DNA of 64,000 bases from Strigamia acuminata (Eukaryota). The number at the start of each line of letters is the position of its first letter. Position 1 is the stretch's first letter. Below the pieces are notes generated by a model that worked only from the letters and a program-made list of their open reading frames with translations, had not been told where the DNA came from and searched no databases. The stretch covers positions 33,356,001-33,420,000 of the forward strand of contig OX442314.1 in NCBI GenBank assembly GCA_949358305.1, read 5' to 3'. A program made the translations under genes and the position numbers. Shown here piece by piece: positions 500 through 43,053 of the stretch.

Positions 500-1190
500 A
501 ACTTTTCATTGGAACATCCAATCCCTCTTTAAAATACTTGCACCCTGATTGCACACAAACAGCTTCACAGTTAAGTTTGCTTCTTTTAACAATTGAAGGG
601 TTTCTTTCAATGTTTCACTTTAACTGCTGGTTGGTGACTGCTTGCTTCCAGTTCATGTTTAATCCCCTCGTCAAAGTTACATTGCTGTGTGTGGTCACAT
701 TTCCGGTGGAATTTTCTAGACCTAAAATAGTTTCAATAAACTGTTGTGAACGTTTGACACTTCTAAAACTTGTAATGGAGCTCTTTGGACTCTTAATTTG
801 GTTGAAGATCCAAAATAAGGTGTGTGTATGGTCCTCAAGTGGAATAATGATAGTTCTTGTATACGAGAATCTACTACCAACACAACTGTCTTGGTCAACC
901 AAACCTCCGGTATTCTATCACAAGGAATGATCATGCATTGTTCTTGCATAGCAGGCTTGGTAACTCCTCTTATCTTCATATTCCACATAGACTCCCTCAA
1001 AGTTTGCACATAGTCGAAGCTGCAAACGCCAATCTGTGTGGTGTAGTAAGAGAAGGATGGACACTTGTGTTTGTAAAAGGTTGATATTCCTAATTTTATA
1101 CTGCGAACCTTATTGAGCACCATTAGTTCATTACTCCATTGTTGCATGGCTGTTTCTTGTATGTATTTAACAGCTTCCATTTCTTTCATT
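500..1190 (-). pseudogene. Degraded P-element/THAP9-like transposase fragment
   Basis: Minus-strand frames give ILGLENSTG...TRGLNMNWKQAV and LKEANLTVKLFVCNQGAS, resembling the P-transposase RGLxxxWKQP and VxxxVCDQG motifs; frameshifts and stops present. Confidence 0.6.
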
Positions 1191-4165: not shown

Positions 4166-5619
4166 TCAAGCACTCAGTGTGCAAGACGGATAGAAATGCC
4201 CCAACCCAACCTCATGATTGAGTTGTAAAATCAAAAGAGAAGCAGCTAATGTGACTGCGCGCGTCGACTCACGCTGACCACACTCATGCCTAAACTCTAA
4301 GAAATGGGACAAAACTTCTCTGCACCGTGGTGCAACGTGAGCAAAGAACTCAGTCCCTTGAACAGCTCACGCTTGCTTGCCTGTCAGAACACGGCGGGGC
4401 TCGTAGACTGAACAACCAAAACTAGAAAGGATGACCCTTTGCCGCTTGGCAGCAGTAGTAGGGCGCGTATGTGTCCCTCGGGGCAGTGGAAGCACGACGT
4501 GCAACAAACCGCTGTGGGACAAAGAAGAAACTCGAAGAACCACCGCCCTAGGGACGGCGTTCATTTCCGTGTAGACTGACCATGTGACTGGTCAAGATCT
4601 AAGACAGGAGACATGCTCAAGGGACATGACCCGAGCGTCTCAGTGCTCTGTGAGAGCGCAAACAACACAAAAAACGTTTTCTCTTGAAAGGGAAACCAAG
4701 AGGAGGAGGAGGGAGGTGGTCACTGTTCCGGACACAATTTCACTCTGGTCAGTAAAGACGCTAGACACTCAAGAGAAACCGCATTTTTCACTCACGTTTT
4801 GTGAAAAACCAAAGATGTCCTTGACGATGTCGCATCGACGCATCTGAACGTTGAGCGCAGCCAACTCCCGGCTGAGTTGATTCAGCCATCGCTGACCGCA
4901 AGAACCGCGAGCTCGATCCTGGGTCACGGTACCAAAAAAAAATGTTGCGGGCCGTGAGATGTACCGGCTGCACACATCAAGCTTGACGGGCGAGTTGCGC
5001 TTTGCAGCTCGCGCCCGTGGTCCTCGGTGTAGGCACGCAAAGGAGAGCGCGGTGACCTGCAGCTAGCTTTTGTAGAGCGACTCCAACACGACCCACGGCC
5101 TTGGTGCCTGGCGTCCAGTTCAGGTGCAGATTAGATATCTGCACGGCTCAAATGGAGAACTGGATCAGGTGGAGAAACTCTTAAGTTGTGCCTGGTTTAT
5201 GCCACTGACCATGCTGGATGCATTATTGGTTGTTGCAACAACACCTTTACTGCGCTGAATGCTCCAAACTTTTAGCATAGCGTCCAACGTATGCTGCAAA
5301 TTTTCTCCAGTATGGTTTTCTGGTATGTGCTGACAATTCAGAGTAACTGGTTTCAACTCCCAATCCTTCGAAACGAAATGCACAGTTAGTGACATGTACG
5401 GCTCCATCACAACGGATGTCCAACAATCCGTTGAGATGCAACAAATCTCCATCTAGCTTAAAATTTCCTTGACTGATGCTACAATATCAATGTCCAACAA
5501 ATTGAAAAAAAATGTCATTTGGTGTATCATATTTTTTGGAAATCCAGTGCTCAACGTCTTTGAGCAGATAATTGCAACCTATAACAATAGGTACATTAGA
5601 GGTAAACTTACGCATTGCT

Positions 5620-8337: not shown

Positions 8338-9521
8338 TCATGTGTTCATCTGTGTTCTTCTGTTTAAAAAACACTTGATCATTTCCCGAGTGTTGTCCTT
8401 TAAGTGTCCATTACTTTCCGGTTTAGAGTAAGTTTTTGGGGTAATTGTCGATATTTTTCTGCGTTGAAGAAATTGTCGAATCAAATCCCGTTCGAGTGAA
8501 TTTTCACTCTTCGGAACAACGGCGCTCGGAACGAAACCGATTTGATCGGCATACGTGATCAGAGTTCTAATAATTTCTGTTAAAATAAATTTTTTTTTCA
8601 AAAAAACGTAAAAAAAATTTTATCCACTTTTTTTTGTGTTTTTCAATATTTTTACCCGAATGTGCGTAAACGTTTTCGCTGTAACTGTCATTTCCATCGA
8701 GCTGCAGTAAATCCGGAGTCAAAATGAGAGAAAGATGGCGCACGTCCATCTCGTTCGACGCACCAAACGAAAGCAATCGATTCAAAAACTTAAAAAAAAA
8801 TATAAAATAAAAATCGACATCAAAATCAACTTGCAATAATATTTATATTTACTAACCATCATGAAATAGCGAAGAAGGTTTAGATTTTGAATCGGCAGCA
8901 ATGAACACAACGACAAAGTGCATCTACGGCGCTCCTCTTCAGATTCCATATTCTGCGCCTTCAATAACGCACCGTGGAATTTCGCCAATATTAACGGTTC
9001 CGGTAATTCTCTTAAGAATTGTTTGACTACGTCGCAAAGATCGTACACGGACACACGTTTTAAATCTAATCTTTGACTTTGAATGCTTTTCTGTTGATTA
9101 AAAACAAGATTTTAAACATTTTGAACGTCATTGTTTTTTTTTTTTTTAAATTTAATTTACTCTAAGTTGTTGTTGGATTGCAGACGATCCTTCCTTCCAA
9201 AACAGATATTGAGTTTCAAAATGTTTCTCTATGTTTGCCAGAATATGGACGAAAAATCTATATATGGGAAAATGAGAAAATTGTAAAAAGTTGTATTAAT
9301 TTCTCTCTCCTTAAATGCACTTACGTTGGAATTGTTATTTGTTTTTGTTTGTCGACAATCGTGTGCGCCAAATGTTCGATCGGAACTCCAAACACTTTTT
9401 TAGTTGGTCGCAATTGGGCTCGTTTTCTCGTTCTGGGAGGTTTGATCCCCATACTGGTCAATTCTCCAACTGAAATTTGTCGCAGTTGTTCCCTCAAGAT
9501 TTCCGTTACGTATCCGTCCAT
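8338..9521 (-). CDS. Rho GTPase-activating protein, ARHGAP11-like; exons 9521-9325, 9257-9161, 9090-8857, 8788-8656, 8576-8338 (~300 aa)
   Basis: GT-AG introns join in frame; VFGVP, KQFLRELPEP, LLKAQ, NEMD...LILTPDLL and LITYADQIGFVP match the ARHGAP11-type GAP domain; last exon boundary less certain. Confidence 0.85.
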
Positions 9522-9889
9522 TCGTAATAATAATTTCTACGACAATATAAGTGACAAGCAAAAGCAATGCTGTTCACTTGAAGCGTGTGTGCTGGAAAAT
9601 TCAAACTGACAAGTGAATCGACCCCGCCCCGTGCATATCATATCAACAAAAGTGACTATCAATCAATTGGACCTGGGGTCGTAGAGGTCAAGAAGATTAG
9701 ATTTTAATTGGTGACTGAATTATATCGAGAAATAAATTAGATAAAAGTTGGAATTGATTATATTTTATTGAGGTTGAGGTGTGGCGTTAGATTAGGCGTG
9801 CTTTTTGGGTTTAATCTTTAAACGCGGTGTTGTGCTTGGTCGCGTTGAATATGTCGACGTATTTGGATACGATTCCTGTGCGGTTGGTA

Positions 9890-10130
9890 TTGGGCTTGGA
9901 TGAGGTAGACCAATCAGCTGCTTTAAGAATGCAGTCTATCAAAACTCCTCTGCCCGCTGCAAACGAGGTAGAGGCAGCTCGTGTCGAGTGCGCTGAAAAA
10001 ATAGATGTGTCCACCCCAGCTTCAGAAAGGAAGCTCTTGATCCAACGCGCAATGGTCGTGGACGAGACCGGCCCAAACGGCGGCGAGGCCGACAGAAACA
10101 GCTGTTTTGCAGCACCCCTATAGGGCTTGG
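9890..10130 (-). pseudogene. Tyrosine recombinase C-terminal fragment (DIRS-like retrotransposon)
   Basis: LFLS..PPFGPVSSTTIARWIKSFLSEAGVDTSIFSAHSTRAASTS...ILKAADWS contains the HSTR (HxxR) motif typical of DIRS YR. Confidence 0.85.
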
Positions 10131-10282
10131 AAAAATCCAAATAACACATATCTTTATCCCATTTTGATGCAACGTGGAAGGGGGCGATAGAGGCAGACTT
10201 TCGCGAACCAATCAACGGAACGACGCAAAAAAGGAAAGATCTGCAGAAAGCAACTTAAGATCGGCTGCCCTGCCTGCCAAAG

Positions 10283-10860
10283 CTACGGCCAACAGTGTAG
10301 AGAGAATGTCACTTGGGAATACTCCGACGGCAATAAATTCAAATATTGGTACCCGTGATGAGTTTCCGAGACGTCTTCGCCTATGTCTTTTAACTGGCGA
10401 ACGTGATAATCAACGCGCCAAATAAAGTCCACCATTTCTTCATCGGACTCGAGACGTAATCTGAGGAATTCTCGCCTCATCGCGGCTTGATGTGCGCAAG
10501 AGCTAGGGGCATATATCTTTGCTAATGTGTCCCACGATTCCTTTGGAGTGTCACATCGGTCGAGGGCCGATTTCTATATAAGGGCAATATATAAGTCCGA
10601 GGGTCTTATCTTTATGACAGAGGAACTTCTTTCATTCTTTTTTGGTGACAGAAAAGGAAGAACTCATTCATCAAGGCCTCTGTCACGTAATGCCAGAGTC
10701 CTTCGGCTTTCAATAACATCTTCATGGACCGCTGCCATGACTCATAATTGCCCACGGATAGAATTAGGACTTTTCCACTTGTATTGTCCGTTGCCTTTTG
10801 CATGACGAAATCCAGTGATCAACCGCAAAAGAGCAAACATCGTGGCACTATGAATGGCAC
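10283..10860 (-). pseudogene. Ty1/copia gag fragment
   Basis: NYESWQRSMKMLLKAEGLWHYV and REFLRLRLESDEEMVDFIWRV...QLKDIGEDVSE...LNLLPSEY resemble copia gag (UBN2-type) motifs; frameshifted. Confidence 0.8.
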
Positions 10861-12519
10861 AAAAGCGTAGAAAAATTTCACTCATGTGATGCACAATATT
10901 CGAACGACAAAATGTCGGAGCACTAAGTGATGTTTGAAGCGGAAACCTTCAACGGGGCAAATCACTTCTGAAGTGACGAAAAACTTCAACCGGCCAACAC
11001 ACGAACCTTCGATCGACCACCTGGGGTCGCGGGACAGTTTGCTTGCCACGGTAAGCACCGGTTGAAAATACAATTTTCGCTTGGCCGGAATGATCGAAGG
11101 GCGAAAACGATGCTAATAAGGTCCCACCAAAAACTTAATAATACCTTAAATTCTAACAAAAATAGTTTGACAACTGAAAAATAAAAATTAGGCGAAAAGT
11201 GATGAATCGAGCACGGCAATTGTCCTTGCGCGTGCCTCGCGTGAAAAACGCGGAAAATCGTCGAAAAATCACCAAAAAAAATTGAAATTGACCGCACACT
11301 GGGATGCTAAGTCATAAATCCTTGGTCTGCTTGCTAAATGCGCCTTACCCGGAGTACTAAGCGCCGTTGACACACGTCGAATTGCCGAAAACCGGAAAAT
11401 AAATAAAATTATTGTGAAATTCGCGAAAAACGCGAAAAACTCGATTATGTTAGACAAAAATAAGCTAATTGTTGATTGTGGATAAATAAACTGGTTAGTC
11501 CTGTTTGTAATCTGTGGCAAAACTTTGCTCAAAACGAGCAGCCATGTTTTATTTGCAAAAACATAAAGCCAAGTGGCAAATCGTACAGAGAAGAACAAAT
11601 CTTACATAATTTCCTCCAATGCGTGATGGAAAATCCATGTCAAGCCGTAGAGACTTCTTCAAGACGAACACTAAGCCTTTTTGCATTGCCCTTCTGACCG
11701 CAAGCATTCAAGTCACGTGACCCAATGACCTCCCAAGTAAGCGGATGCCTGCAACCTATCTGCACACTGCCTGATGACACCTGTCATACTACAAGACCCC
11801 TTTCGCGCAAATAAGATTGCTTTCAACGTACACACTATTTCCCCCTCTTCTATTCAAGTACAGTACCGCATCTTAACTATACAACATATTACCCATGACA
11901 CCTTGCCCTTGACAGAACCTAAAGGATTATATATCCAAAAGATATGATTCACCGAAACGAGTCTATTTTCCCGCTCCTCGACTCTTTTTCCATTCCAAAA
12001 TAACTAAATGCAAAAAAGAAAAAAAGAAAAAAAAAAAATGAGAAACTGACACAGATATACGTAACCAAGGTTTCAGATTGAATTAAATCGCCAGCCGTAC
12101 AAAACTGATGGAAAACTTCTTCACGGAATCCATGCTAATCTTAGCTTGCCGCCTTTTTCACATGTCAGGTGACACTCCCTGACCTTTGAGACGAGCGCCT
12201 TCTTTCCCAATCCTCCGTGCCAAACCTTTTAAATCCGAAAAGGAGGAAAGTGGAAAGTGAACCATAACAAGGGAAACACGCCATCGTCATGGAAACGGAT
12301 GCAAAAATAACTACATGTATCATACCACTTGGAAAAGAAAATAAACAAAATTTGCCTCCATTTATACAAAAAAATTTTTCTCAGAAACTAATGGATAGAT
12401 TTTGATAAAATTTTAGGTGAATAAAGTAGGATGTTCTACAAGCATCCAGTTAAAATTTCATTAATTTTCCTCTATTTTTTCCCGAGATACAGCCGGGAGA
12501 ATCAACATGATGCGTTAGT

Positions 12520-12720
12520 AAACTTACTTTTGCCCCCCACTGTATATATACAGGGTGGAAGAAAAGTCTGTTCCCCTCAAATATTTCCTCAGCAATTGCA
12601 TCTAGGCCAACTTTGATAAAGCGATTGTATAGGAAGTTGGGTGAGAGCAATCCATTGGTGTCATCAAATTTGACCTTGGGGGCCATTTTCAAAGTCATTC
12701 ACTTGCTAACTTCTAAACCA
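12520..12720. mobile_element. Abutting Tc1/mariner-like element ends at a (TA)n run
   Basis: ACTTTTGCCCCCCACTG-TA (reverse complement of a Tc1-like CAGTGGGGGGCAAAAGT terminus), followed by TA-CAGGGTGG; partner ends not found. Confidence 0.4.
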
Positions 12721-13079
12721 ATCAGGTTAGAGAAAAATTTCCAATTACAAAGTTGTAGAGCACCATCTAATTAGTACTATCCAATTTATCTTAGTCATCT
12801 TAAGTTAAATGTTTTCTTTTTAAAAAGGAGACAAATCAGAAAATAAATCAGCGAAACAAAATTTTTTATTCTTGTGATAAAATAATTATTGAGGCATTAA
12901 AAAAAGGCAGTGGTTTTTCTTGTTTGCTTGCATAATAATGCACACTTGAATACGTTTATTTAAGTAATTTAGTATTTTTCTAGTAGAAATTTAAGTTTTG
13001 TCACATTTAGGCTGGCTTTATTTTAGCTGATTTGTCTCCAAATAATTATCATAATTTACATCTGTATTTTTCTTATTTT

Positions 13080-13612
13080 CTAGCTTATTATGATTAAAAC
13101 CAGAGTTGATGTATTGGTCTTTTAAAGGCACAGAAAAAACACTATTTGAAATTGGACCAGCACTTGGTAATGTTTGGTTATTCTCAGCATTCATTAATCA
13201 TTACACTAAAATTGTGCACTTTGCAGACCTGGATTCCATGGCACTTGACTTGATGTTTGTGCATCCGTATAATAATATTTGCGAGAGTATTCATATAAGT
13301 ATTTTGACACCCAAGATTCTTCTTTTTTTACTTGCATTCCGCACTTGTCAGCATTGTTGGCTAATTGACTAACAAAAGAATCTATATATTTTTCACGTGT
13401 TAGACCTAAATCATCCAAATCTATTTCTTTGGGTATACGCAAGCAAACAACTTGATTGACGCCTTGTCCTAATTACGACGCTACAGTTACATTCTTCTGC
13501 TGTAAGAAGAATTAATAAAGTGGTTAACAAGGTCCATCCTTTTTGTCTTAACCCTTCTAGCCATGCTTCACTTCCTTGTTGATACCTTGGTCCTTGTAAT
13601 GGGTCACCATTA
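13080..13612 (-). pseudogene. Endogenous viral element: Mononegavirales L (RdRp) gene, 3' part (motifs B-D)
   Basis: GSEAWLEGLRQKGWT (motif B); frameshifted LGQGVNQ (QGDNQ motif C, mutated); GMQVKKEESWVSKYLYEYSRKYYY; NNQTLPS...ISNSVFS. Confidence 0.92.
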
Positions 13613-14241
13613 CGTGACCGGCTGCCCACACAGTCTGTCACTTCACTGCAACACACGGCGCTTCCCAGCTCTCGCGCACCTCGTGTGTTTCTCGTGCGCG
13701 ACCTGGCGCGGTCCCCGCACCAGATGGAGCTGTTGGTCATTGGCTCCGGCCAATTGGGAACCGGAAGTGCCCCTTCCGGAAGTGGTGGGCCCCGCAGTAG
13801 CCTGACAGTTGATTCTTGACCAGCATGGCGAACGGTCGTGTTCCGACCTTCTTCGCAATGCCGATCGTAGGAGAGACCCGAAGGACCGACGCAGCAATGC
13901 TGTCGCCGGTCGGGACCTGAGCGTCCAACACGCCGTGTTCGCCGCACGTTTCTAAAGAACGTTGCGACGACGCGGCACAAACTGCAATAACCGATCTCGC
14001 GTGTCATGGCGATCTACCGATTGCCGTGACACGTGGTCAATCAGGAATAGCGGCAAAACCGCTATTACATTTGGGAAATACACCTTGAGACACCATATCA
14101 TACCCCTAGACAACAATAAAGCAATAACCAAAACCTAAACTTGTGTCTTTCGTGTATTTCGTGGATTTAATCATCGTGTGTGTTGCGTCCAGCGCCTCGC
14201 GGTCCTCCCCAGACCACGTGGCGTCCGTCCAAACACTCACA
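13613..14241 (+). repeat. 5' LTR of element 1
   Basis: Direct repeat of 20933-21561; CG...CA (first T mutated); contains AATAAA. Confidence 0.95.
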
Positions 14242-14243
14242 AT

Positions 14244-14261
14244 TGTGGGCCCGTCCGAGAT
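14244..14261 (+). promoter_or_regulatory. Primer-binding site, tRNA-Pro-like
   Basis: TGTGGGCCCGTCCGAGAT, 2 nt after the LTR; compare canonical Pro PBS TGGGGGCTCGTCCGGGAT. Confidence 0.75.
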
Positions 14262-15909
14262 TTTGAACTCTCTGGCGAAAAATTTTTGTTTACTGATGGT
14301 GCAAAACACCATATTAGACAAATCTCTTTTCTTTCAAAAGAGGGGGAAACTTCTTTGATCATGGTTGTGACAGGGGGTCAGCAAGCGAAACGGCCGCTAA
14401 TCGCTGACCATTGGACCCTGATTTGACAAAAACTTTTGGCTGTGCATGTCCAGCTTGCCTGGGTAATGGCAAGCAGGGACTTACATTAGCCATACTTTCC
14501 AAAAGTCTCCTATTTCTCTCTAGCTCAGCTTAAACAACTGGGTGGTTGGGAGGGAAATATGATTCTGAACCTTCATTTTTATTTTTATTTTTCTTGGTGC
14601 GAAGCCCAAGTGAAGTAATGAAACTATAACTGCAGAGTTTTGAACCCGATTAGAGGAAGAGGTGCGCTGGCGACGGCTGGCAATCCAAAACACACGGGGG
14701 ATAGGCGGTTACGCTAAAACCAATGCGGGCATAATCCAATTGCCACATTGCAGCCAATGGTTCCATTATGGGCCGGGCGAGGAGACGAGAATGGACTGAG
14801 CTTTGAGCACAAAGACCTTTTGAAGACCGGGGTATTACCCGGTATCCAGGTTGCTATTACGGGGAAGTTGCATGGCATGGAACGTTCAGGATGCACTGAG
14901 CGGTTGTCAATAAATGGGATCCGGGTAGCAGCGAAGTGCTGGCAAGCATGGGAAAAGTGGCTTGGAGGTTGCTGTGGCGATTCATAAGCTCTGAATTGCC
15001 CTGCTGCTGCTCAAGGCGCTCATCCGGGTTCATTTCGTATAACTCCTACCCTGTCCCAAGTACTGGTCAGAAACAGTTGCAAGTTGGTGTACACAACCCA
15101 AGAACTGTGGAGACTGGGACTTGGACAGCGGGGCGGGCTGCCGGAGGTACGGGGATACCGATGGTGAAGTGCCCAAATGATACAGAGAGCTCGTTAGGGC
15201 GTAGGAACGATATCTGTATATTCAGGTAGCTACCAGCTTTGAAAAAGGACTGGGAATCTAGCCTGTAACTGTATTTTCAATTTTTTATTCATCTTTTTGA
15301 ACTTTTCGAATTGTTGCTGGTTGTTCAGGGACTGTGCTCGAACCACAGTTCTAAGCAATCTCTGCATTTTGGGAATTTTATATTTTGTGTTTACACTTTT
15401 CTCATTTTTCTTTCTCTTCAATTTTTTCTTCTCTATCTATTATTTTCATGGTTTCTTTGGGACTCCACATCCGACAGTAGTTACATGTATCTTAAATGCC
15501 GGGCGGTATACAGCACCAAATGGAGGGTGATATGGCTTCGAGATGGCAGCTGAAAGATTGGACCCAGGGAGACTAGGGACGACGGGTGCGTTTGCCTCTT
15601 ACTTTTCAGATGTACCTGATTGTCTCAAACAAACAACCACTTCATTGGGATGAGCAGACATTCCAGTGTAAGCACGTTTCTGTCGAGAAGGCAGCCTCGT
15701 GCAGACTGAGGTGAAGGCCTCAGCGTAGGCGAGCGGGCGCAATTGCTATTTTCTTGGGGCAGAAGGAGAGAACTAGTAATATCCCTGTTTATTTCTGCAG
15801 ACTTCTGCTAAAAATCGTAAGTTTTGGGGTGATTTTCTTTAGGAAATTCACACATCTTTTATCATTTTTCATTGTATTTTTTCTTGTCTTTCTTCTTTTT
15901 AAATTGTGA

Positions 15910-16045
15910 ATTCTACTTCTTTGTTGCAAAACAATAAAGTTGTGGGATTATTTTGTGTATTCTACTTCTTTGTTGCAAAACAATAAAGTTGTGGGATTAT
16001 TTTGTGTATTCTACTTCTTTGTTGCAAAACAATAAAGTTGTGGGA
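15910..16045. repeat. 49-bp tandem repeat, ~2.8 copies
   Basis: ATTCTACTTCTTTGTTGCAAAACAATAAAGTTGTGGGATTATTTTGTGT repeated at 15910, 15959, 16008. Confidence 0.9.
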
Positions 16046-16712
16046 CTAATTAACGCTTTTGCGTGTCACTTTACCGTTGTTTTAAACAATGGTAAAAACC
16101 ATTCGTTTGGTAATTCCGAAGCTTTTGAGACATGGTTTGAGTGCTTTTAAAAAGTACAAAAGTTATGTTTCTTTGGTATCAGACCATTTATGATCTGGTT
16201 CTATGGCTTCTAGTACCAAACAATCACCTTCTGTTGTTTTCAAAATGTTGGTTTTTCTGCAAAAACAGAAATAATCAAATCATTTTTTGTGGTCAAAGTT
16301 TTTATTTTTTCAAAAATCAAAGATGGCGACCTGGAAACAATAGGAAAACCATGTGGAAATCTAAGATTTTTCCAGAAATTCTGGAATTTCGAGAAACTAA
16401 AAGTTTTTGGAACTCTGGGAAATAACTTCTGGGAATTTCGAACCAATCACGTGATTTATGGGGATAATGGGGGGGAGTGACATCACTAATCCCTCCCCCA
16501 TGAATGGCTAAAATTTACAACATCGCTGACCTCTAATTGGTTGCAAACTAATTCTTTGCGTCCATTTTGTTTTTCTGCGGACCTGTCTTCTGGCACAGTT
16601 CGGCCAATGCCACACACCAGATCAGGCAAGCCCACGTGGAAATCGCCAAGCGACCAAAACCGTTACAAGAGAAGAAGATTCCGACGCCGATTCGAACGAT
16701 TCACCCCTGAAT

Positions 16713-17820
16713 TTGACAATCGAAGAAGAAATGGCGAATGGAGGTAACAAAACGTTGGACCAAGCAATGCTTGAGACAACATGCGAAATTTTCGATCTAA
16801 AAATCGAGAATATAAACACGTACGCCGTATGGGAAAGCACGCTGCTTGCAGTGGCCAATCATACAGTGGAAATCGAACATGAAGCTGATGTTGCAAAACG
16901 ACAATCAGCGGACCTTTCCGCAGAAATTGACGACCTAACCAGCCGTCTCAAAGAAGCGGAAATAGCAAATCAAACCCATTTGCGATCAATAAAAACCTTT
17001 TCTGAACTGTTAAACCAACAGAAATCAGTCATGGATAGCGTGACAGCGGCGGGCCAAGCAATGGTCGAAGCCAACAAATTGGCGACTGCTGCAAAAACAG
17101 TTGTGTCGTACACGCGTTCAAACCAACCAGTAAATGTGAACGGCAATACGCAAAACGTAACGCCGCAAGCAGTTACTACGAATTCGACACTTTTGGCCTG
17201 GGGTAATACCTTCGGCCAAGGAGTGGACAAACCACTAGGCGACTTTAAACCCAAAGACGCGATAACGGTATCACGCACTTTAAGCAATTTTGAATTGAGT
17301 AAGCGCGTGAATGCCATCTGTTTGGAACCGTTTCTTGGTGACAAAATGGAAGCTCACGACTTCTTAATGGATTTGAAAGGGGCTCTTGCTTTTGCAGAAC
17401 CTTCTATCAACCAGGTGCTCAAAGAGCATCTATTTAAGTTTTTCAAAGGTGAAGCAGGAACATGGTTCTCTTCGACTGCTAAAAATACTTGGCAAGAATT
17501 TGAAAACGAATTCCTTCTACATTTCAGGCCAAGCGACGCATTGTTACTGGCAGAAATAGACAAGATGCAACAGGCATCACATGAGTCTGCCACTCAAGTA
17601 GTGTTTAGATTGGAGAGGCTGTATACACAGCTGGCTATTCCAGTCCATGAGAGCCTACAACTCCGTAAGATTTTGACTATTTTGCGACCGGCAGCGAGAC
17701 ATGGCACGTACTGCATTACATGCGGATAATACGTGGGCAGCTCTCAGAAAAGCTTGTGTAGCAACAGAAGCTTCGATCCTCAACAAGGAAGCGATAGCAA
17801 CTTCAAAAGCTGAAAAAGCA
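16713..17820 (+). CDS. gag: Gag-like capsid protein (frameshift near 17700)
   Basis: Coiled-coil-like N-terminus, then FKGEAGTWF...TWQEFENEFLLHF...MQQ...ES (retrotransposon gag motif). Confidence 0.8.
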
Positions 17821-18739
17821 AGACTGTTTTTTCAAACTTTGATGAAACATACTGGATTGCTTGTTTGCCTTTCAGTTTGTGCAATACATCTTGTGCATTT
17901 TAGAGGACGATAAACAAAGTTCTAGAAACTGCACAGAACATGGACTCTTGCCTGAATTTGGACATCATCATTTATGATTGAGTCCATGACAGAGCTTCTC
18001 CAAGATCTAGGTGAAATTGAATCGATGGCTAGCCCATTGAAACCGTTTTTTCCTATGCCCAGAAAAGATTGATTTTTTCTTTCTCAAATTATTACTGAGT
18101 CTGATGGGAGTTATAGCCCAAAAATGACAAAGTCCAAGCAGATTTTGACTGGATGCTGACTATCCTTTGTTGCAATACGACAAGGATTGTTTTTTATCTG
18201 CGCACTAGCTCGGGTAAATTTATTGTTGCAAAACAACGATAAAAGTCTCTGGTTTGAAAATTTAGAAGTTCTTTGGACATGATTTCGTGCTTTTTTAGGG
18301 CACAAAAGTCATGTTCTCATGGAATCAGACCAATATTTGATCTGGTTCTGAACTTCTAGTTCCAAACAAATTTCTATTTGCTTTCAAAAATTGTTGCTTT
18401 TCTTCAGAAATGGAGAAATTTTGGCATCTATTGAGTCAATATTGTTGGTTTTTCATAAAAATACAAAATGGCGACCAGAAAACAATGGAAAAACATGTGG
18501 TGATCACAGATTTTTCGGGAAAGATTTGATTTTCAAACAAATTTTCGAAAATCGTGGGATCTCTGAGAATTTAATTACACAAAATTAAATAAATTCACTA
18601 CCAATGAGAGAACAGGGGGGGGGAAGTGACATCCCTAATCCCTCTCTCATGAACAATTACACTCACTACAAATAAAAAGTTGTTAGACCTGTGGTGGCAG
18701 ACATTTTCAAAACAAGGAATGTCCCACGAGGTGAAAACA

Positions 18740-19170
18740 GCAGCAATCAGAAGAATGCATCTGCATTTGAGTTTGAGAACCAATTTGCAGAAAGAATTAT
18801 GCTGTCTCTGCCTGATTCGCTCGCACTTTGTCACCCTTACGGATGCAAAAGTAGCAGCTGGCTCGAAGCAGTCTTTCTACAAATGGACGACCAAGATGCT
18901 TTGGTTTAAAGACTAAGGTAGTTGTTTTTGTAATAGGACGCTGAAACGCGCAGAAAGCAACTACAAGCACCACGAATTTGGAAAACTTTCAGCTGTGATT
19001 TGACAAGTTCAGACCACACTGAGAATTCTAGATTTGAAGTTGGAAATTTAGTATCACTAAAAATCCATCATTTGAGGAAAATAGCTATACCATTAGCTAC
19101 GTCTCGCAAAGACCTTTTCAAAGAACCAGGTATAATCACTAAAATGACCAATACAAATGGTTTTACAACA
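18740..19170 (+). pseudogene. Heavily deleted pol remnant (RNase H and integrase C-terminus)
   Basis: LSLPD..., LTDA..., LEAVFLQ, RTLKRAESNY-STTNLE and FEVGNLVSLKIH in shifting frames. Confidence 0.6.
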
Positions 19171-19749
19171 TTGTGAAACACAGGAGATTTATTCCTTCAG
19201 ATGAAAATACCAAGTGGCCTATTCCAGATGAAAGAGATATAGAAGTCCCTGAAAATCAACCAAAAAAGATGCTGAATTGACAACAAAATTGCCAATTTCA
19301 ACACAACCAGAGAAAGCCAGTACAGCAACCAAATTGCTAATACCAGCGCAACCATTGAATATTTTGAATCAAAATGTGGTTTTGCCTCTGCCAAATGTAA
19401 TTTCAAAACAAACTACAAATATTTGGCCAAAACCACAACAAACTTCCGGTCGCCCTCAAAGAAATCGAAGACCACCGGCAAGATTACTCGATTAAACACC
19501 AGGGGGACACCCCTGAACTCAAGAAACCGATTTTGGACCAATCACAGATCGTCTAGAAAACGTCTGCAGTACTTTCCAAAATACGCCATTAACACGTGTA
19601 CGAAATTCGTATATTTAACGAGCGCTGATTCGGTCTACAAATCATTCTGTTCACCAACAGCGACCGACCACCACAGTTCTCGCATTCAAACGATTCTCGA
19701 AGGAATCCAGAATTTCATTGTTTCCGAAATCGATAAGTTTTGCTGTAAA

Positions 19750-20682
19750 ATGGATCAACGATTATTGTCGACACACACGACATGCACAGTATGCATGGGC
19801 GGAGGACTCACGCACTACCCGAATTTGCAGGTAACGGCATGTATGAACTGCAACGGAAAGAAGATTGTTTATCTTTATCGACCGGTGGAGAATTTTTTTA
19901 AATTTTTCATGCGGCCAGAACATTTGCTTCCCGATCACAAACGCGTCTTGACGTGGGGGAAAGTTCGAAGCGAAGCCGACAGGGAAAGGGACGCGAAAAT
20001 CTACTTCAAGGGACTTTCCGCATCCTCTACCCCAACGCAACCGCCAAGAAAAAAGGCGAAGATGTCGAACAAAAATTCGTCATTTGAACCACAAACACTA
20101 GTAGAGGCCACGAGCAACAACTCGACGGTCGATACAAACAAAACGGCGAAGCAATCGAGCAAAAACTCGACAGCCAAACCAATACTAAAAGGAAATGGTC
20201 CAAAGACCTTTTCCGCAACAACGAAACAAATGGGTATTTCCATGGAAACTAACATTTCCGCGGAGCTACTGGAGCTTCGGTTGGCTGTTCGTACGGAACA
20301 CCCAACTTGGAGTGAGAAAGAAGTAAAGGACGAAGCCAAGAAGCGTCGTCAATTACGAAAAGCGGCCGATTACCAACGGCACACAAACGCCATCGCCAAT
20401 ACCACGTCGAAGACACCGGCGGCGGCAACGATCACGAGCGAGACAGCCAAGACTGTTTCACCAAAAATAATGCGGACGGAGAAAACTCCGGAAGAACTGA
20501 AAGGGGTTTGGAGTCAAATATTGCCTGCCCCGCTCTCTTCTTTGAAAGCAAAGAGTCTCGTCCAGGTCTTTTTAGACCTACATCAAGTGTTTTTATTGTT
20601 TAATTACAAGTTTTTTCACATTTATTTTTTGTTTTTCAACTTACCCTTAAAGTTTTTCCATTTAAATAACCACGAGTTATAA
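19750..20682 (+). CDS. Accessory ORF of element 1; unknown protein with CxxC..CxxC pair and NLS-like motif
   Basis: Open frame 19423-20682, first ATG at 19750; CTVC...CMNC, PPRKKAK, AKKRRQLRK; sits just upstream of the PPT. Confidence 0.55.
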   Translation: MDQRLLSTHTTCTVCMGGGLTHYPNLQVTACMNCNGKKIVYLYRPVENFFKFFMRPEHLLPDHKRVLTWGKVRSEADRERDAKIYFKGLSASSTPTQPPRKKAKMSNKNSSFEPQTLVEATSNNSTVDTNKTAKQSSKNSTAKPILKGNGPKTFSATTKQMGISMETNISAELLELRLAVRTEHPTWSEKEVKDEAKKRRQLRKAADYQRHTNAIANTTSKTPAAATITSETAKTVSPKIMRTEKTPEELKGVWSQILPAPLSSLKAKSLVQVFLDLHQVFLLFNYKFFHIYFLFFNLPLKFFHLNNHEL

Positions 20683-20920
20683 GTTTTAAAAATCAAATAG
20701 CATTTTATTCATGTTCAAAATTTACAAGTGTTTTTTACAAATTATTTATTATACAGTGTATTTCAAATTTTCTGTCTTTCATCCTGGGGGTAAGTGTGGT
20801 CCTTGAGTGTGTGTTTCCCGCAGTGTTTTCCTGTAAAAAGAGAAGTAATATACAATTAACTTTTCAAACCACTTTCGTGAAGTGTGTTGTCAGTTCTCCT
20901 TCTAAGAATTACCTCTTTTT

Positions 20921-20932
20921 AGGGGGGGGAGA
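20921..20932 (+). promoter_or_regulatory. Polypurine tract
   Basis: AGGGGGGGGAGA directly before the TG of the 3' LTR. Confidence 0.9.
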
Positions 20933-21561
20933 TGTGACCGGCTGCCCACACAGTCTGTCACTTCACTGCAACACACGGCGCTTCCCAGCTCTCGCGCACC
21001 TCGTGTGTTTCTCGTGCGCGACCTGGCGCGGTCCCCGCACCAGGTGGAGCTGTTGGTCATTGGCTCCGGCCAATTGGGAACCGGAAGTGCCCTTTCCGGA
21101 AGTGGTGGGCCCCGCAGTAGCCCGACAGTTGATTCTTGACCAGCATGGCGAACGGTCGTGTTCCGACCTTCTTCGCAATGCCGATCGTAGGAGAGACCCG
21201 AAGGACCGACGCAGCAATGCTGTCGCCGGTCGGGACCTGAGCGTCCAACACGCCGTGTTCGCCGCACGTTTCTAAAGAACGTTGCGACGACGCGGCACAA
21301 ACTGCAATAACCGATCTCGCGTGTCATGGCGATCTACCGATTGCCGTGACACGTGGTCAATCAGGAATAGCGGCAAAACCGCTATTACATTTGGGAAATA
21401 CACCTTGAGACACCATATCATACCCCTAGACAACAATAAAGCAATAACCAAAACCTAAACTTGTGTCTTTCGTGTATTTCGTGGATTTAATCATTGTGTG
21501 TGTTGCGTCCAGCGCCTCGCGGTCCTCCCCAGACCACGTGGCGTCCGTCCGAACACTCACA
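20933..21561 (+). repeat. 3' LTR of element 1
   Basis: TG...CA, direct repeat of 13613-14241. Confidence 0.95.
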
Positions 21562-22783
21562 ATTATGATCTTGATCTGGTGGATTCAAGCAAACTTGAAA
21601 TAATAAATCTGCTTCCATAGGGAATAAATGTGTATAAGCAAATACATTTTTAACCCAAATAATTGATCCAATAGTTTAAAGACTGGGGTTGCTAATTCAA
21701 AACGGAAATTTGAGCACCATGAAGAAAAGTCAATAGCAAGTCACCTATAATTTTAGTACCCGGCCATTTTTTCCTTTGTTTGAAATACTGACGACAAAAA
21801 GATAATTTAAAAACATTTGCCAGCTTGCTTCTGTACTCATCAAGATCTAATTTGAGTAGGCATCCCTTGTCTCTCCAGTTTTTGCAACTTTCTTCCATGT
21901 AATTATTGGGATGACCAAATACAATCCACTTAATTCTAAAAACATGTGGGCATCGACGCGATTGTGTATATTCTCTGTTATGTATTTTACAAAAAGAGAC
22001 TCTTTAAGATTCTCATCCAAGGATGCTATTAAACTATTAAAAAATTCAGGGTTCCCTTCCAAATTTTTCTGTACAGCACCTATTGTCAAAGAAGGCCATA
22101 TCTTAAAGATTTGATATGCTGAATCTCGATACTGACCTAATAAGTCCAATCCACAATGTATTACATTCACAACAGTGGTGTAAAGATCATGACCTGGGTG
22201 TTTTGTGTCACCCCATAACCAGGCGTAGAGTTTATACAGTCTCTTAGTCCTGCCAAATGGGCATGTGTGATCAAAAAGAAGATTTCATTACGTTCAATTA
22301 GGCGTAAATTTCCAAAACAAAACCCGACAAATTGACCTAGTTTGAAATTATCAAACATTTTGTCACTAAATGTGACTTTATCAAACAAATTGTCAAATTC
22401 AGTTTTGATGTTGTGTAATTGGTATATCAAATCTGGAACATGCTTGAGTTTATCAGAGTATCTCTGTGGAATGTCTCTCTTGCTCCAGTTTAGTTTTCCA
22501 ACTCGTAGTGTAGTGTAGTGTGGGCTATTTCAATCTCTATGTTTAGTTCTTGTCTAGTATCCCTGGTAGTAGTTAATAAATTTACTCAGTTATTTAAGAA
22601 ATATGGATAGAAATGGTATGACGTATAATAAGTCTTATCAGTCTTGGTCATATGTTGAAGGATGTGCTTGTGTTCAATTTTCAAAGTTTCATCTTTATCT
22701 GCATTTTGAAATAAATAATCTATTTCACTAGTATTTAAAGCTGATGATAAATGTTTGTCCTTCCTAAAAACAGATGAAGCCAT
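21562..22783 (-). pseudogene. Endogenous viral element: Mononegavirales L gene, 5' part (N-terminus to motif A)
   Basis: MASSVFRKDKHLSSAL, LELSGL..GHP, FCRQYFKQRKKWP, IDFSSWCSNFRFELATPVFKLLDQLFGL, NVFAYTHLFP; joins the 3' part in frame across the ATTA TSD (NPPDQDHN|GDPLQGPR). Confidence 0.9.
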
Positions 22784-22889
22784 TTTGTTTGTTTCAAAGC
22801 AAACCCTCTTTAGGGTTGTATTCATAAGTATGGAGTTGAAATAAAACCGACTTTGCTTGATGAATTTAATGAGTCGACTGACTGTTTAT

Positions 22890-23457
22890 TGTATAACGAA
22901 AGAAGGAGGTTGCCAGGTTTTCCCCTGGCAACTTACAATAGAAAAAGGTGAATATATTATTGAAACAATTCGTGAGTATCGAAATATTGTAAGAAAGTCA
23001 AATATGTATTCATGGCGGACGTAGCAGTAAGCCTTGCAGAGGCCAAGTAGTTCTCTCCTAGTAGTAGTTTTTAGTCAGCAAGGCGAACGGTCGCTTTCGT
23101 GATCGCTCCCCAACACTAACTATGATAGCGACCCAATTGATCGGCGTGGCGACGCTGTTGCCCACCGGGACCTGAGCGTCCAAGTACGCCGCGTTTGTCC
23201 AACGTTGCGGCGACGCGGCCGAACATGCAATTCTGATTACTCGATCGTGTCATGCGGTCTAGTTAGGGATGGCTGTTCGCAGCCATCGCATTGGGAAATG
23301 CACCATGAGACACGACATCATACCCCTAGACAACAATAAAGCTTACATTAAACTAAACCTGTCTCCTGTGTATTTTGTAGTTAATCTTATCGTGTTTCTT
23401 GTGTCCAACGTCCCGTGGCTCTCCACTGACCATGTGGCGTCTGTCCGAACACTCACA
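22890..23457 (+). mobile_element. Diverged solo or partial LTR related to element-1 LTRs
   Basis: Shares GGCGAACGGTCG, GGGACCTGAGCGTCCAA, CATACCCCTAGACAACAATAAAGC and the terminal CCGAACACTCACA; 5' boundary uncertain, no TSD found. Confidence 0.75.
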
Positions 23458-23617
23458 GGTGCCACGACTCAACTTATTCCTAACATTGCTTTGTTTCAGC
23501 CAAAGCTGTAGTATACAATTTCGTAGATTATCAGATAATTGCTTCAATTTTGTCATTTTTTATTTGGAAACAACTATTTTCCAAATGTATTCACTCTTTA
23601 TTTTAAGCACAACAGGT

Positions 23618-24613
23618 TGTGGTGACCCGACTGGGGTGGGGCACGAAGAGTTTCTCTCGTGGCCTACATACGGGTAAAGAAGGGGAGTCGCACGCGCGCC
23701 TCCCTTCCCTCAGAGCATTGACATCCAGTCAATGGACGGGCGTCTGCCCTGGGGGAGTGGGGGAGATTCGTCTTCTCCACTATTGGGTGGCTTTAGTCAC
23801 CTGTCACCCCCCGCTTTGTGCAAAGGAATTCGCCTTGCACTGAGCGGGCAGAACCAACACAAAAATCAACCAAGATACACGTAAAAGCCAAACGTCCTAA
23901 AACGATCAAGCCTAAGTACAAAGACTTCAGGAGTGACCTAGGACAAGGGACTTTCAACGTGAGTACGATTGATTTGTGTTAACCTCCGCAGAGTAACCTG
24001 CGAAACAAGATTACCACACTATTTTAGCAAGCCAGCTAGAAATAGTAAACCTACTCCAATTTAGCGAGTTGTGCAGACAAACGGTCGCACAAGCCTAAAT
24101 TGCAGTAACCACGACGAGCGTTCCCGCCGCTGTGTGTATCGCCGGGAACCACCAAGCGTCCGCCGCTGTGTGATCGCCGGACACCTACAAAAAACCCTAA
24201 ACCTAGACAACAGACCAGAAGTAAGACCTTTCAGGCATTCACTCGCGCCCGACCAGCGTGAGCCCGAAGGACCGAACGAGAAACGTGAGACGAGGACGCC
24301 ATTCATTGCCACGCCGGCCCAAGACGACACCACGTTGCCACGCGGACGCCATCTTGGATCCACAGCGACAAAGGACGACCTCGACCAGTTTCCCGCCAAC
24401 TTCACACCCCTTTCCTTTTACCTTTTTATTCCCTTACATATTTTATTCCCTTTTAACTGTATATTCCCGTATAATAAATACATTTATTATATTTACCTTT
24501 TACATTGTCTTGCCGTGTTACATTATTTGGGTAACCGCTTGAGTAAAGCGGTATTGCGAGATCAGAGAGTGACTCATACCACGTATCAGCGACAGACCGA
24601 GTTGAGCGCGACA
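23618..24613 (+). repeat. 5' LTR of element 2
   Basis: Direct repeat of 61480-62475; one mismatch seen (GAGTACG vs GAGGACG). Confidence 0.97.
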
Positions 24614-24633: not shown

Positions 24634-24681
24634 CGATTTAAACGACTCGAATAGAACTTGAGATCATTTTCATACCCAAAA

Positions 24682-27600
24682 ATGGCAGACAATATCCGAG
24701 TAACGGATTCCGACTCCGACGCGAACAAGAGAGCCGGCAGTCGTAAAGGCGCCGACTATCACTTGCGATCTGGAGGTCCCTTACCCAAAGCCTCAGCGCA
24801 CGAAGCGAGGCAAAAACGGCGCAAGCCTAAACCCGATCGCAGAAGCGCATCAGAGGCATCGCACCCGTCTCGTTCCGAGACGAGGCAGCGATTGGACGAG
24901 ACAGAGCGGGGTGAAGAGCAATCTCACTCCAAACTGCCGCGTTCTAACCGTGACGGCGAGACGAGCGGAAACGAGGTTTTATCCCGTAACCCATCGCCTC
25001 GTCTAACGCACGACACCGAGGTGGGCAGTCCGAAAGCGGCGTCTCCGATACAAAAGACGGCCTCAAACACGACAGCTAATTCGGCACTAAACACGCCAAT
25101 TACGCAAAGCCGCCCAGCTTCGGTCAGGTCCGAAGGACACAAGTCCAATGCGTCAAAAACTGAGCGTGTTCCGAGCCAGCCTTACAGCGTCTCGGCCACA
25201 TTGGTTGACACGATGCAGTTGGCACAGGCAGAAGGTGTACGATACACTCTGCCAACGGGAAAAATAACTGTGTACGAAACATTACAAATCGTACGTGCAG
25301 CTTTAAGAGCGCACAGGTTATCCCCGGAAATCACCGTTGTTGAAGGCGCATACGCTCAACAAATGGTAGACTCCGCTCAATTCGAAGCGGATGCCGAGAA
25401 TGAGGCCCGACAAGCCATCCGCGAGAGAAAGCGGAAGCTGGCGGAAAGAGAAGCGCGAGCTCTCGAGTACGGCAAATCCCAGCGCGTTCCGACTACCCCA
25501 GAAGAAGTCGAAATAGTTGATCGAGCCTTACATGCACATCGTTATGCATTCCGTTCTCAACAAGAAGCTGAACAAGCTTTCATGACTAGGCTGCAACGAG
25601 ACAAACCAAAATCCGTTCGCAAGCCAGAAGTTAGCTCGTCCGAATTGTCCGACGAGAGCGTAGAAGGCGACCCGAAGCGCACGCCGAAGGTCAGCCCCAA
25701 ACCCGAGCGAAAAAAGGAAGTGCCAGTCACTCCACGCAAACGGGAAGTCTCGACCGAACAACGCGTTCGACCTCGCATGATGGCGTTAGACGATAACACT
25801 AACAACGCTATCAACCGATTAATAAATGCGAACAACGCGCGTCGTAACGAAGAACAGACTCACACGAGCCGACAACGCGACGACCCGCGGGGTAACGACT
25901 GGCAACAGCCGGTACCCATCCTCAAAGACGACGGACCTTCGAGAAAACCTTCCGAAGACCGCACATCGTCACGAGAGGAACGTCAACGCGAAAGAGGACA
26001 GCAACAGTATCACTACGGAAACAGTGATTCGTCGTCGGATGAACTGGAGTCGAATGCACCCAGTCATCACGATTCGGAGAGAGGTTCCGGAGAAAGACGA
26101 AGGGAAAGAGAACGCGATGAACGCAGGGAAAGGGAACGTGACGACCGTCGTAGGGGCCGGAAAGAGTCAAACTCTTCACGGCGCAACCCGCCACGCCGCT
26201 CACCGTCTCCCGACCCCAGCTCCGACCCCTCGTCCAACGACGACAGACGAAATGATAAGTCAAGTAATCGCCGGAAGAGATCCAACTCTCCGCGCGATAG
26301 AGAGAAACGACGTCGATCGGAAAATAGCGACCACCGACGGGAGGAGTTTCAGGACCTTCCCCGACAAAGCGCGTTTACCGATTCGACGGGTCGGCAGTAT
26401 ACGATGGGAGAGCTTGGAAGAGCCCTGCTTGGCTCGTTAAAAGCCGAAGGAATCGATCTGAGCAAACGAAATGATCGTAATCGTAACACTGGTGACCGCG
26501 TAAAGAAAAAATACGCTGTCTCCCGACGTGACACCATGAGTGTTACCGGGAATATTAGGTGGCAATTTTATATTCAGAACCGTTTCGACGGGTCATGGAA
26601 AGCGGGAGATCGCTTCCTTGACGAAGTAATTCGGATTAAGACTGCCACTAAAGCCACCGTAGGAGACATGCTCACCCACGGTATTGTCGAGCTAATGACA
26701 GGCTCGGCACGTGAGTGGTACCAAGGATTGAAAGGCGTCAATTGGGACGACTTTTTAATGAGATTCGACCTGCGCTACGGCGAGACACCCGAAGAGGTGA
26801 GCCGAAAGATGCGAGGTCTTCGCCAGATGCCTGGTGAAACCATAATGGATTACGACATTCGCGCCAGATTGTTGTTCGAAAAGGCCCCGATGGAATTTCA
26901 TGCCACGGGATTCAACCTTTTCTTTCTCGGCGGTTTGTCGGAATACTCGCAACGGGTGCTACTTGAAGAAAGGGCACCGACAGGAGGCAGCTACGAAGAA
27001 ATGAGCGCCTTCCTGTTCGAGAACACGATAGATATCGAGAAGAGATATTATTCCGCTTTACCAGAAGCGGAGAAAGCAGCAACCGCTAAACGTCTCAAGT
27101 TGAGTGCGGAAAGATATGGGGCGACAGACAAAATCATGCGCCCTACTGAATATCTTAGCGGTATAATGGAGCTGGCAGAAGCTAGCGTTGGTTTACAAAT
27201 AAAAAATAAACTGACATCCACGCTGCCTTCCAACCCATTGGCCGCCCCTAAAAAGGCACCGACAGCGTCAGCCATGCAAGCGACACTGGAGGAGGTCAAG
27301 GAGGGGGAGGAAGCCGAACAAAATGTCGGAAAATCAGACGAAAAAGAAGAAAAAGACGATTATTCGACGGACGAAGAAATACGAAGCTATCGCGATACCT
27401 TATCAACGGGTTGCGATGAGGAAGGACCGCTAGTACATCTCATCCATCGAGATAGAGCGGTAGAAGAATTTCGCGCCAGGTTAAAACCAAATGCCGGCCG
27501 AATTCCGAAGTATTTTCGAAAAAATTACACGCCACCGTCGAAAGTAGACCCTGAAAAAAAGAAATCGATTGAAGCCCCAAGAGACAAATCAAATATTCGT

Positions 27601-27762
27601 TGTTTTAAGTGTAACCAACCGGGTCACTATTCCAATGAGTGCCCAAGAACAGCGAAAGAAGACGCTAAGTTTGACGCGATAATGAAGCAGATGGCAGAGA
27701 TTAAACTCGCCATGGCAAAAAACGAGTCAAAAAACGAGTCAGCGCAGGCGGCGAAGAAATAA
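24682..27762 (+). CDS. gag: Gag with very long disordered R/S/E-rich N-terminus
   Basis: MTGSAREWY...WDDFLMRFDLRY...LRQMPGETIMDY capsid motif; CFKCNQPGHYSNEC zinc knuckle. Confidence 0.92.
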   Translation: MADNIRVTDSDSDANKRAGSRKGADYHLRSGGPLPKASAHEARQKRRKPKPDRRSASEASHPSRSETRQRLDETERGEEQSHSKLPRSNRDGETSGNEVLSRNPSPRLTHDTEVGSPKAASPIQKTASNTTANSALNTPITQSRPASVRSEGHKSNASKTERVPSQPYSVSATLVDTMQLAQAEGVRYTLPTGKITVYETLQIVRAALRAHRLSPEITVVEGAYAQQMVDSAQFEADAENEARQAIRERKRKLAEREARALEYGKSQRVPTTPEEVEIVDRALHAHRYAFRSQQEAEQAFMTRLQRDKPKSVRKPEVSSSELSDESVEGDPKRTPKVSPKPERKKEVPVTPRKREVSTEQRVRPRMMALDDNTNNAINRLINANNARRNEEQTHTSRQRDDPRGNDWQQPVPILKDDGPSRKPSEDRTSSREERQRERGQQQYHYGNSDSSSDELESNAPSHHDSERGSGERRRERERDERRERERDDRRRGRKESNSSRRNPPRRSPSPDPSSDPSSNDDRRNDKSSNRRKRSNSPRDREKRRRSENSDHRREEFQDLPRQSAFTDSTGRQYTMGELGRALLGSLKAEGIDLSKRNDRNRNTGDRVKKKYAVSRRDTMSVTGNIRWQFYIQNRFDGSWKAGDRFLDEVIRIKTATKATVGDMLTHGIVELMTGSAREWYQGLKGVNWDDFLMRFDLRYGETPEEVSRKMRGLRQMPGETIMDYDIRARLLFEKAPMEFHATGFNLFFLGGLSEYSQRVLLEERAPTGGSYEEMSAFLFENTIDIEKRYYSALPEAEKAATAKRLKLSAERYGATDKIMRPTEYLSGIMELAEASVGLQIKNKLTSTLPSNPLAAPKKAPTASAMQATLEEVKEGEEAEQNVGKSDEKEEKDDYSTDEEIRSYRDTLSTGCDEEGPLVHLIHRDRAVEEFRARLKPNAGRIPKYFRKNYTPPSKVDPEKKKSIEAPRDKSNIRCFKCNQPGHYSNECPRTAKEDAKFDAIMKQMAEIKLAMAKNESKNESAQAAKK

Positions 27763-27780
27763 CTTCTCGACCGTCTGCGC
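27717..27780 (+). promoter_or_regulatory. -1 programmed ribosomal frameshift signal (gag-pol)
   Basis: In-frame A_AAA_AAC heptamers at 27717 and 27729; stem GCGCAGGCGG...CCGTCTGCGC begins 6 nt after the second; the -1 frame is open into pol. Confidence 0.85.
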
Positions 27781-42999: not shown

Positions 43000-43053
43000 A
43001 TATGTTTTTAGCGGCGCGCCGACGCGTCCGCCACGCCCGTCTGGAGAGCTTAA
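43000..43053. other. 50-bp unique spacer plus TTAA between the two copies
   Basis: ATATGTTTTTAGCGGCGCGCCGACGCGTCCGCCACGCCCGTCTGGAGAGC-TTAA; absent from the outer junctions. Confidence 0.92.

Follow-up and report, generated by a model that had tools for sequence, protein, structure and literature searches.

A decayed nyamivirus-like L gene, split by an LTR element, in the genome of Strigamia acuminata

How does the polymerase gene of an RNA virus come to lie in pieces in a host chromosome, and what has become of it there? The question is raised by a stretch of 64,000 nucleotides from Strigamia acuminata (assembly GCA_949358305.1, contig OX442314.1, positions 33,356,001 to 33,420,000 of the forward strand), here called the window, in whose own coordinates all positions are given. 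A first-pass annotation, made from the letters alone, had pieced together on its minus strand the polymerase (L) gene of a negative-strand RNA virus, interrupted by a long terminal repeat (LTR) element. It is very probable that the locus is a decayed endogenous L gene of a nyamivirus from the orinovirus/formivirus clade, made into DNA by a host enzyme, fixed in the germ line and later split by the LTR element.

Viral L sequence in a host chromosome

Minus-strand frames at 22825-21566 and 13611-13248, seen in a six-frame reading of 12300-13800 and 21200-23400, match the L proteins of the Mononegavirales colinearly (residues ~10-356, 554-614 and 617-737). The L motifs named at first pass are all present in these frames: DKHLSS (its DxHLSS) at ~22760, GHP at ~21915, KWP at ~21765, motif A (DFSSWCSNFR) at ~21730, motif B (AWLEGLRQKGWT) at ~13570, motif C, here GQGVNQ, at ~13465 and KKEESW at ~13325. 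With P0002, the L protein of the nyamivirus Hymenopteran orino-related virus OKIAV85, as the tblastn query, nine segments of the window match at E < 0.001, all on the minus strand and all in protein order. They fall into four pieces.

21761..22825, minus strand: piece A, N-terminal stretch of L (P0002 residues ~10-356; DKHLSS, GHP, KWP), in four frame segments; tblastn at 22771-21761, residues 23-157, 116-194, 208-332 and 301-356
21566..21755, minus strand: piece B, region of motif A (residues 554-614), preceded by an internal loss of ~195 residues; Pfam, and tblastn at 21752-21571, residues 554-605 and 569-614
13248..13611, minus strand: piece C, motifs B and C and the stretch after them (residues 617-737); Pfam, profile, and tblastn at 13611-13251, residues 617-673 and 659-737
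728..1162, minus strand: piece D, start of the mRNA-capping domain (residues 966-1109); PF14318, profile, and tblastn at 1162-728, residues 966-1109

The Pfam family Mononeg_RNA_pol, the check proposed at first pass, matches three of the six frames scanned at profile positions 600-631, 674-708 and 702-781, in increasing order (E-values 4e-4, 5e-5 and 7e-6, each below the curated cut-off), and PF14318 matches piece D above its cut-off (E 2.9e-8). A profile of 15 close relatives scores the L pieces at 29-121 bits and finds no further match in the window at E < 0.5; the reversed window, as a control, reaches at most 0.7 bits. The homology to L is genuine and lies far above chance level. The colinear similarity to mononegaviral L proteins on which the first-pass annotation had staked its reading was found, and significant colinear similarity to the gene of a virus without a DNA stage is what marks a non-retroviral endogenous viral element.

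Eight of the nine tblastn segments are colinear within the interval first proposed, 13080..22783 (E 7e-4 to 1e-27). The core of that interval stands, with changes at both ends. Clear homology of piece C ends at ~13248 instead of 13080, and at the other end homology starts at ~22798, with an ATG at 22825. A weak extension of piece C to ~13130 has a pairwise score of 43 against a shuffle maximum of 31 and no support from the profile, which supports no homology past the ends of pieces A, C and D. Pieces A to C had been recognised correctly; the internal loss before motif A had been missed, as had piece D, which lies ~12 kb past the interval and beyond a spliced host RhoGAP gene.

A 47-residue motif B fragment retrieved three proteins from 11 candidates in a large protein collection, namely one unnamed protein, the L of OKIAV85 and that of Xiangshan nyami-like virus, both named ones being nyamiviruses. 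The homologue search with an 87-residue motif C frame yielded none from 24 candidates, and no relative was found in viral contigs scanned with P0002, piece D and P0012, an unnamed environmental JGI L protein. In a search of solved structures, piece D had no match and the motif C frame had weak matches to L chains (E 0.07-0.2), mixed with chance matches to albumin. A metagenome scan with piece D passed two of 38 stretches; their matches of 16-19 residues score below zero against the L profile and were set aside as chance.

The viral pieces are chromosomal, because contigs of sequencing runs hold them at flank-like depth, joined to host repeats. Three of the six listed runs, all with one species label and from two studies, hold the viral piece (98%, 98% and 86% of words). 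The contigs of these runs, X1, X2 and X3, the last from the second study, cover pieces A to D with 0-8 differences and, at the outer ends of A, C and D, reach more than 31 bases into the flanks; contigs spanning from viral sequence into host flanks include 21535-23184 and 613-1467 (X3), 12971-13602 (X1) and 591-1434 (X2). Depth on viral sequence and on neighbouring unique DNA is 83-121 and 117 in X1, 203-279 and 216-277 in X2, and 34-40 and 41-47 in X3. X3 differs from the window at 7/1650, 8/855 and 2/673 bases (plus two gaps), a divergence of 0.3-0.9% over the viral pieces that is similar to the 18/1761 of its flank contig. Among the 15 joints listed of 101, none is an empty-site joint. Contigs of run X6 do not cover the viral piece and no RNA run is listed for it, which says nothing on expression.

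It is extremely improbable that the sequence is an assembly chimera or a contaminating live RNA virus. A near-identical 12.2-kb tandem block elsewhere in the window means that assembly artefacts are possible in general, but in independent contigs from three runs the broken sequence recurs almost letter by letter, with a depth like that of the flanks and linked to host DNA, and a live virus could not carry these breaks.

The breaks are many. Piece A has frame changes at ~22510, ~22225 and ~21925 and a stop at ~22588, piece B has one frame change at ~21650, and piece C has one at ~13490 and a valine in place of the first catalytic aspartate of motif C (GQGVNQ). Piece D runs for 145 codons without a stop or frame change. 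Counting one at the internal loss, there are six frame changes, and a seventh, where piece C ends, has weak support. KWP and motif A, which are 204 residues apart in all seven relatives measured, are separated here by 26 bases, leaving ~195 residues lost; residues ~740-965 and everything beyond 1109 were not detected by the profile in the window. About 615 of some 1,880 L residues are represented, two-thirds of L being absent. Nyamivirus genomes are of negative sense and 10-13 kb long, with N, P, M, G and L genes and conserved start/stop signals; here L is the only viral gene present: the minus-strand frames of 22780-23620 and 1-720 hold no viral Pfam family.

The longest intact frame has 156 codons, frames break about every 250 bases, and no intact frame carries the catalytic motif C that a domesticated polymerase would keep. 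The viral L gene is dead as a gene; because of the frame changes, stops, internal loss, changed motif C, element insertion and missing parts, no working polymerase can come from the locus. Since the frames break so often and motif C is changed, the sequence has probably decayed neutrally, with no protein made. The observed/expected ratio of CpG is 0.36 (A+B), 0.48 (C) and 0.37 (D), compared with 1.58 for the RhoGAP region and 1.21 for the LTR, and this depletion is a further sign of foreign origin.

Nyamiviruses replicate in the nucleus (PMC10010136), and splicing was considered as the cause of the ~195-residue loss, an AG/GT word lying near the junction. Splicing is rare among RNA viruses, according to the parts of PMC12770441 consulted, and relatives' residues before motif A align through the AG/GT word. 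The candidate was rejected as very unlikely, and the loss junction probably lies upstream of the word.

The LTR element and the order of events

Pieces B and C are separated by a second kind of sequence, which lies on the opposite strand and has a relative nearby.

13613..21561, plus strand: non-autonomous LTR element (paired LTRs, target duplication, purine tract)
13613..14241, plus strand: its 5' LTR, 629 bases, from LTR comparison
16530..17729, plus strand: its gag-like frame (Pfam Retrotrans_gag, E 2.5e-6)
19276..20682, plus strand: a 468-codon open reading frame inside it, with a cysteine-rich middle
20933..21561, plus strand: its 3' LTR, 629 bases, from LTR comparison
23063..23457, plus strand: decayed partial relative in the same LTR family, with ~79% identity over its 3' part

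The paired LTRs, a purine tract ahead of the 3' LTR and a target duplication, ATTA at 13609-13612 and 21562-21565, together identify an LTR retroelement, although the 5' LTR starts with CG rather than TG. No reverse transcriptase, RNase H or integrase was found by Pfam in six frames of 14142-16530 and 17700-20930 or in the single gag frame of 16530-17726. The 468-codon frame has no convincing Pfam match, and its best score in Atlas, 0.78, is uninformative. The element belongs to a multi-copy family, because its summed contig depth in run X1 is in the thousands as against ~100 on the viral pieces, a depth that is not a copy number. It shares LTRs ending in CA, the purine tract, a 4-base duplication, a gag remnant and many genomic copies with non-autonomous elements of the gypsy type, to which we take it to belong; it differs from them in carrying the 468-codon frame, and the superfamily is not shown by the detected domains.

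The two halves of the viral sequence join when the element is removed, as had been said at first pass: its flanks adjoin each other in protein coordinates, at P0002 residues 614 and 617, with ATTA on both sides. The ATTA duplication is made of viral sequence, and the viral DNA was therefore there first and the LTR element came second. The LTR pair differs at six sites, all transitions (Kimura two-parameter distance 0.0096; 0.96%), which gives the viral DNA a minimum age of roughly 0.5-1.6 million years at assumed rates of 3e-9 to 1e-8 substitutions/site/year.

Did the element itself bring the viral sequence into the genome? The two are in physical contact, and LTR elements are implicated in the capture of viral RNA elsewhere, in the part of 10.1101/127498 that was available. 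However, the viral sequence flanks the LTR pair on either side instead of lying within it, its two parts are contiguous in protein coordinates, and no pol was detected inside; the viral origin of the 4-base duplication refutes carriage by the LTR element unless the match, being of 4 bases, is due to chance. Because the target duplication is viral and pol is not detectable, the LTR element is not the integrating agent, and carriage by it is hardly credible.

Relatives of the source virus

A search with P0002 residues 280-800 gave 168 proteins, of which 120 were listed; 121 were compared. The best 13 of the 121 by summed tblastn bits (412-558, overlapping segments being summed) are all orino- or formivirus-like, followed by Sekira virus at 344, and the best non-nyamivirus reaches 147. 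The best identity to the orino-/formivirus clade is 37-73% per segment. As suggested at first pass, the source virus has no close named relative among the proteins compared.

A quick tree was made from 45 rows, namely 43 references, including lispi-, xinmo- and rhabdo-like outgroups, and pieces A-C and D as separate rows. Both viral rows group with P0012 (97) inside an 18-row orino-/formivirus clade (100 by the Shimodaira-Hasegawa-like approximate likelihood ratio test). More careful trees of A, BC and D singly used 22-25 references, with distant outgroups, several long-branch rows and near-duplicates dropped. In these, piece A is the sister of P0012 (85/73) inside the orino-/formivirus clade at 100/99, and P0012 is the nearest row for BC and D, though without resolved forks. 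Taken singly, BC and D are less firmly placed in the clade than A is (91/92 for D, an open fork for BC). A mixture-model tree of A-C and 18 references again places A-C as sister to P0012 (88/89), within a 13-row orino-/formivirus clade at 100/99, on a long branch of its own (1.0 change per column).

Two groupings, named after the first tree had been seen, were put to the approximately unbiased test. A-C with the four formivirus-like rows is rejected (p-AU 0.019), as is A-C with Orinoco virus and its two nearest rows (p-AU 0.024), so that the viral copy forms one clade with neither Formivirus nor Orinovirus.

Of the first-pass placement, arto-, borna- or nyami-like rather than rhabdoviral, the non-rhabdoviral part stands. 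The L copy lies inside the clade of the Nyamiviridae, the family's criterion in PMC10010136, at 100/99 in trees without bornavirus or artovirus rows. The exclusion of bornaviruses and artoviruses would follow from the nested position and the 37-73% segment identities to the orino-/formivirus clade. Judged from these comparisons, the source virus falls in the Nyamiviridae, within the orinovirus/formivirus clade and outside both named groups. We would suggest, tentatively, that it represents an undescribed genus-level lineage outside Formivirus and Orinovirus, with P0012 as its only sampled near relative.

The viruses of this clade, among them OKIAV85, OKIAV87, Formica fusca virus 1, Orinoco virus, Beetle nyamivirus and Ixodes ricinus orinovirus-like virus 1, have colinear L homology to the copy described here, and the words DFSSWC and AWLEGLRQKGWT are common to it, the clade and P0012. 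The copy differs from them in being chromosomal DNA, broken and limited to L. OKIAV85 and OKIAV87 form Orinovirus lineage I in the portion of PMC6932829 consulted.

Endogenous relatives are known from other arthropods, as described in the accessible parts of the reports. Pillbug elements group with Midway and Nyamanini viruses and are without target duplications (PMC4231630), wheat aphids have Nyamiviridae-derived elements mainly from L, some of them transcribed (PMC11978097), and some endogenous elements of Lepidoptera cluster with Nyamiviridae, among other families (PMC12548735). A further example is likely P0036, a nyamivirus-like protein on an 11.5-Mb Arctia plantaginis contig that groups with Orinoco virus in the mixture-model tree. 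Like the present locus, these elements are L fragments that lie among transposons in host DNA and contain stops and frameshifts. The present one belongs to a different lineage, keeps the 5' end of L and has, between motifs A and B, an LTR insertion that is young and can be dated. A literature search found no paper joining nyamivirus endogenous elements with formivirus, supplementary tables being outside the search. Bat eEBLL-1 is likewise a germ-line L copy from a related nuclear-replicating family; as far as the consulted part of PMC4865735 goes, its frame is intact over 1,718 codons, in contrast to at most 156 codons and no sign of selection here.

Piece D and the origin of the locus

To our knowledge, mononegaviruses encode no reverse transcriptase, and the DNA copy of part of the nyamivirus L gene was therefore likely made by that of a host retroelement. 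The copy would then have been fixed in the germ line of the host, and the non-autonomous LTR element later inserted into it and split it. Short spliceosomal introns, host DNA that is not depleted in CpG and the arthropod hosts of the named relative viruses suggest that this host was an invertebrate. How piece D fits this course of events depends on what lies between it and piece C.

8338..9521, minus strand: host RhoGAP-domain gene, compact, with five exons and short introns (Pfam E 5e-15)

Contigs of X6 skip three introns of this gene at canonical ends, and the gene or a near-identical copy is therefore expressed. It may be a duplicated, altered paralogue. FWKE stands at what we take to be the arginine-finger site. 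The gene's contigs in X1 and X2 have ~1.5 times the depth of unique DNA and several differences from the window. The absence of RhoGAP cover in X3 was not used as evidence, conserved animal genes having been dropped from the contig comparison.

Piece D is somewhat more likely to stem from the same integration as A-C than to have another source. It lies on the same strand, its residues follow those of A-C without overlapping them, its nearest row is P0012, as for BC, and its CpG depletion is the same. In that case, a later insertion or rearrangement of a host block with the RhoGAP gene and transposon remains would, with the same modest preference, have moved it 12 kb. The alternative is a second, independent integration into this repeat-rich region, by the same virus or a close relative of it. 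The intervening spliced gene speaks for it, as do the clean 145 codons beside the heavily broken A-C and the lack of any connection from C to D in the 12 contig joints listed; viral elements also cluster in LTR-rich loci of mosquito cells, in the part of 10.1101/127498 consulted. However, strand, protein order, CpG depletion and nearest relative are all shared, and, given how often A-C is broken (~7 breaks in 1.75 kb), 435 bases would stay clean with a chance of ~0.18, so that the difference in decay is not significant. A second integration is accordingly a possibility to be kept in mind, but the less probable one.

Could the locus have been kept as an antisense source of PIWI-interacting RNAs (piRNAs) against related viruses, an immune memory rather than inert DNA? 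In a mosquito cell line, as partly seen in 10.1101/127498, viral elements lie in LTR-rich loci, mostly sharing the polarity of their LTR neighbours, and yield piRNAs; the viral pieces here also sit in a dense nest of LTR elements and repeats, and the nyamivirus-derived elements of aphids are transcribed in some cases, in what was seen of PMC11978097. Large deletions and insertions fit neutral decay, and the region holds an expressed host gene. Such a role is unlikely.

Several points weigh against a host-made nyamivirus copy that was later split, as we read the locus. X1 or X2 may be the source sample of the window, leaving only X3 from a second study, and contigs enter the LTRs by only 27-29 bases, short of the 31-base bridging rule. 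The reference set, seeded with a formivirus protein, lacks both bornavirus and artovirus rows. The ends of the viral insert showed no recognisable poly(A) tail, target duplication or retroelement junction, and a spliced host gene between C and D is unexplained by a single simple insertion. The nearest LTR relative, at 23063-23457 and ~240 bases past the viral 5' end, has the opposite orientation to the viral sequence, unlike the mosquito cell line pattern (10.1101/127498).

The surroundings are rich in repeats. At 12340-13080, adjoining the left end of piece C, is a very high-copy short repeat with a summed depth above 100,000 in X1, and a copia-type gag remnant lies at 10283-10573. A minus-strand frame at 9811-10254, with an HSTR word and without a Pfam match, presumably resembles a DIRS-type tyrosine recombinase. 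Stretches at 1200-1800, 2524-2748 and 5165-5452, also without a Pfam match and adjoining the start of piece D, have what we take to be a resemblance to hAT-type transposase and terminal repeats. A scan for transfer RNA genes found none.

Beyond the viral sequence, 23618-62475 is a very young gypsy-type element, whose 996-base LTRs differ at one site. It has gag, protease, reverse transcriptase and RNase H at 24655-30494 and integrase at 55735-57198. Its pol is interrupted by ~25 kb consisting of a repeat-rich 12.2-kb block in two copies that are 99.2% identical (30437-42639 and 43049-55273), either a true tandem duplication or an assembly artefact. Both block copies contain a large palindromic array (39354-42639 and 51966-55419) of 551-base and 56-base units, with inverted arms of up to 1.1 kb at 99%. 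Between integrase and 3' LTR is a 1,091-codon plus-strand open frame (58165-61440) without a Pfam family.

The locus adds no new mechanism or working gene, and nyamivirus L fossils are known from several arthropods; its value lies in virus taxonomy and paleovirology. Endogenous elements are the only firm proof of past hosts of a virus lineage, and the present one connects a divergent lineage of nyamiviruses with one host species, with an internal clock in the form of a young LTR insertion with an intact target duplication. If the lineage is indeed of genus level, the locus would be the first to prove a host group for it, and the LTR pair would set a minimum age.

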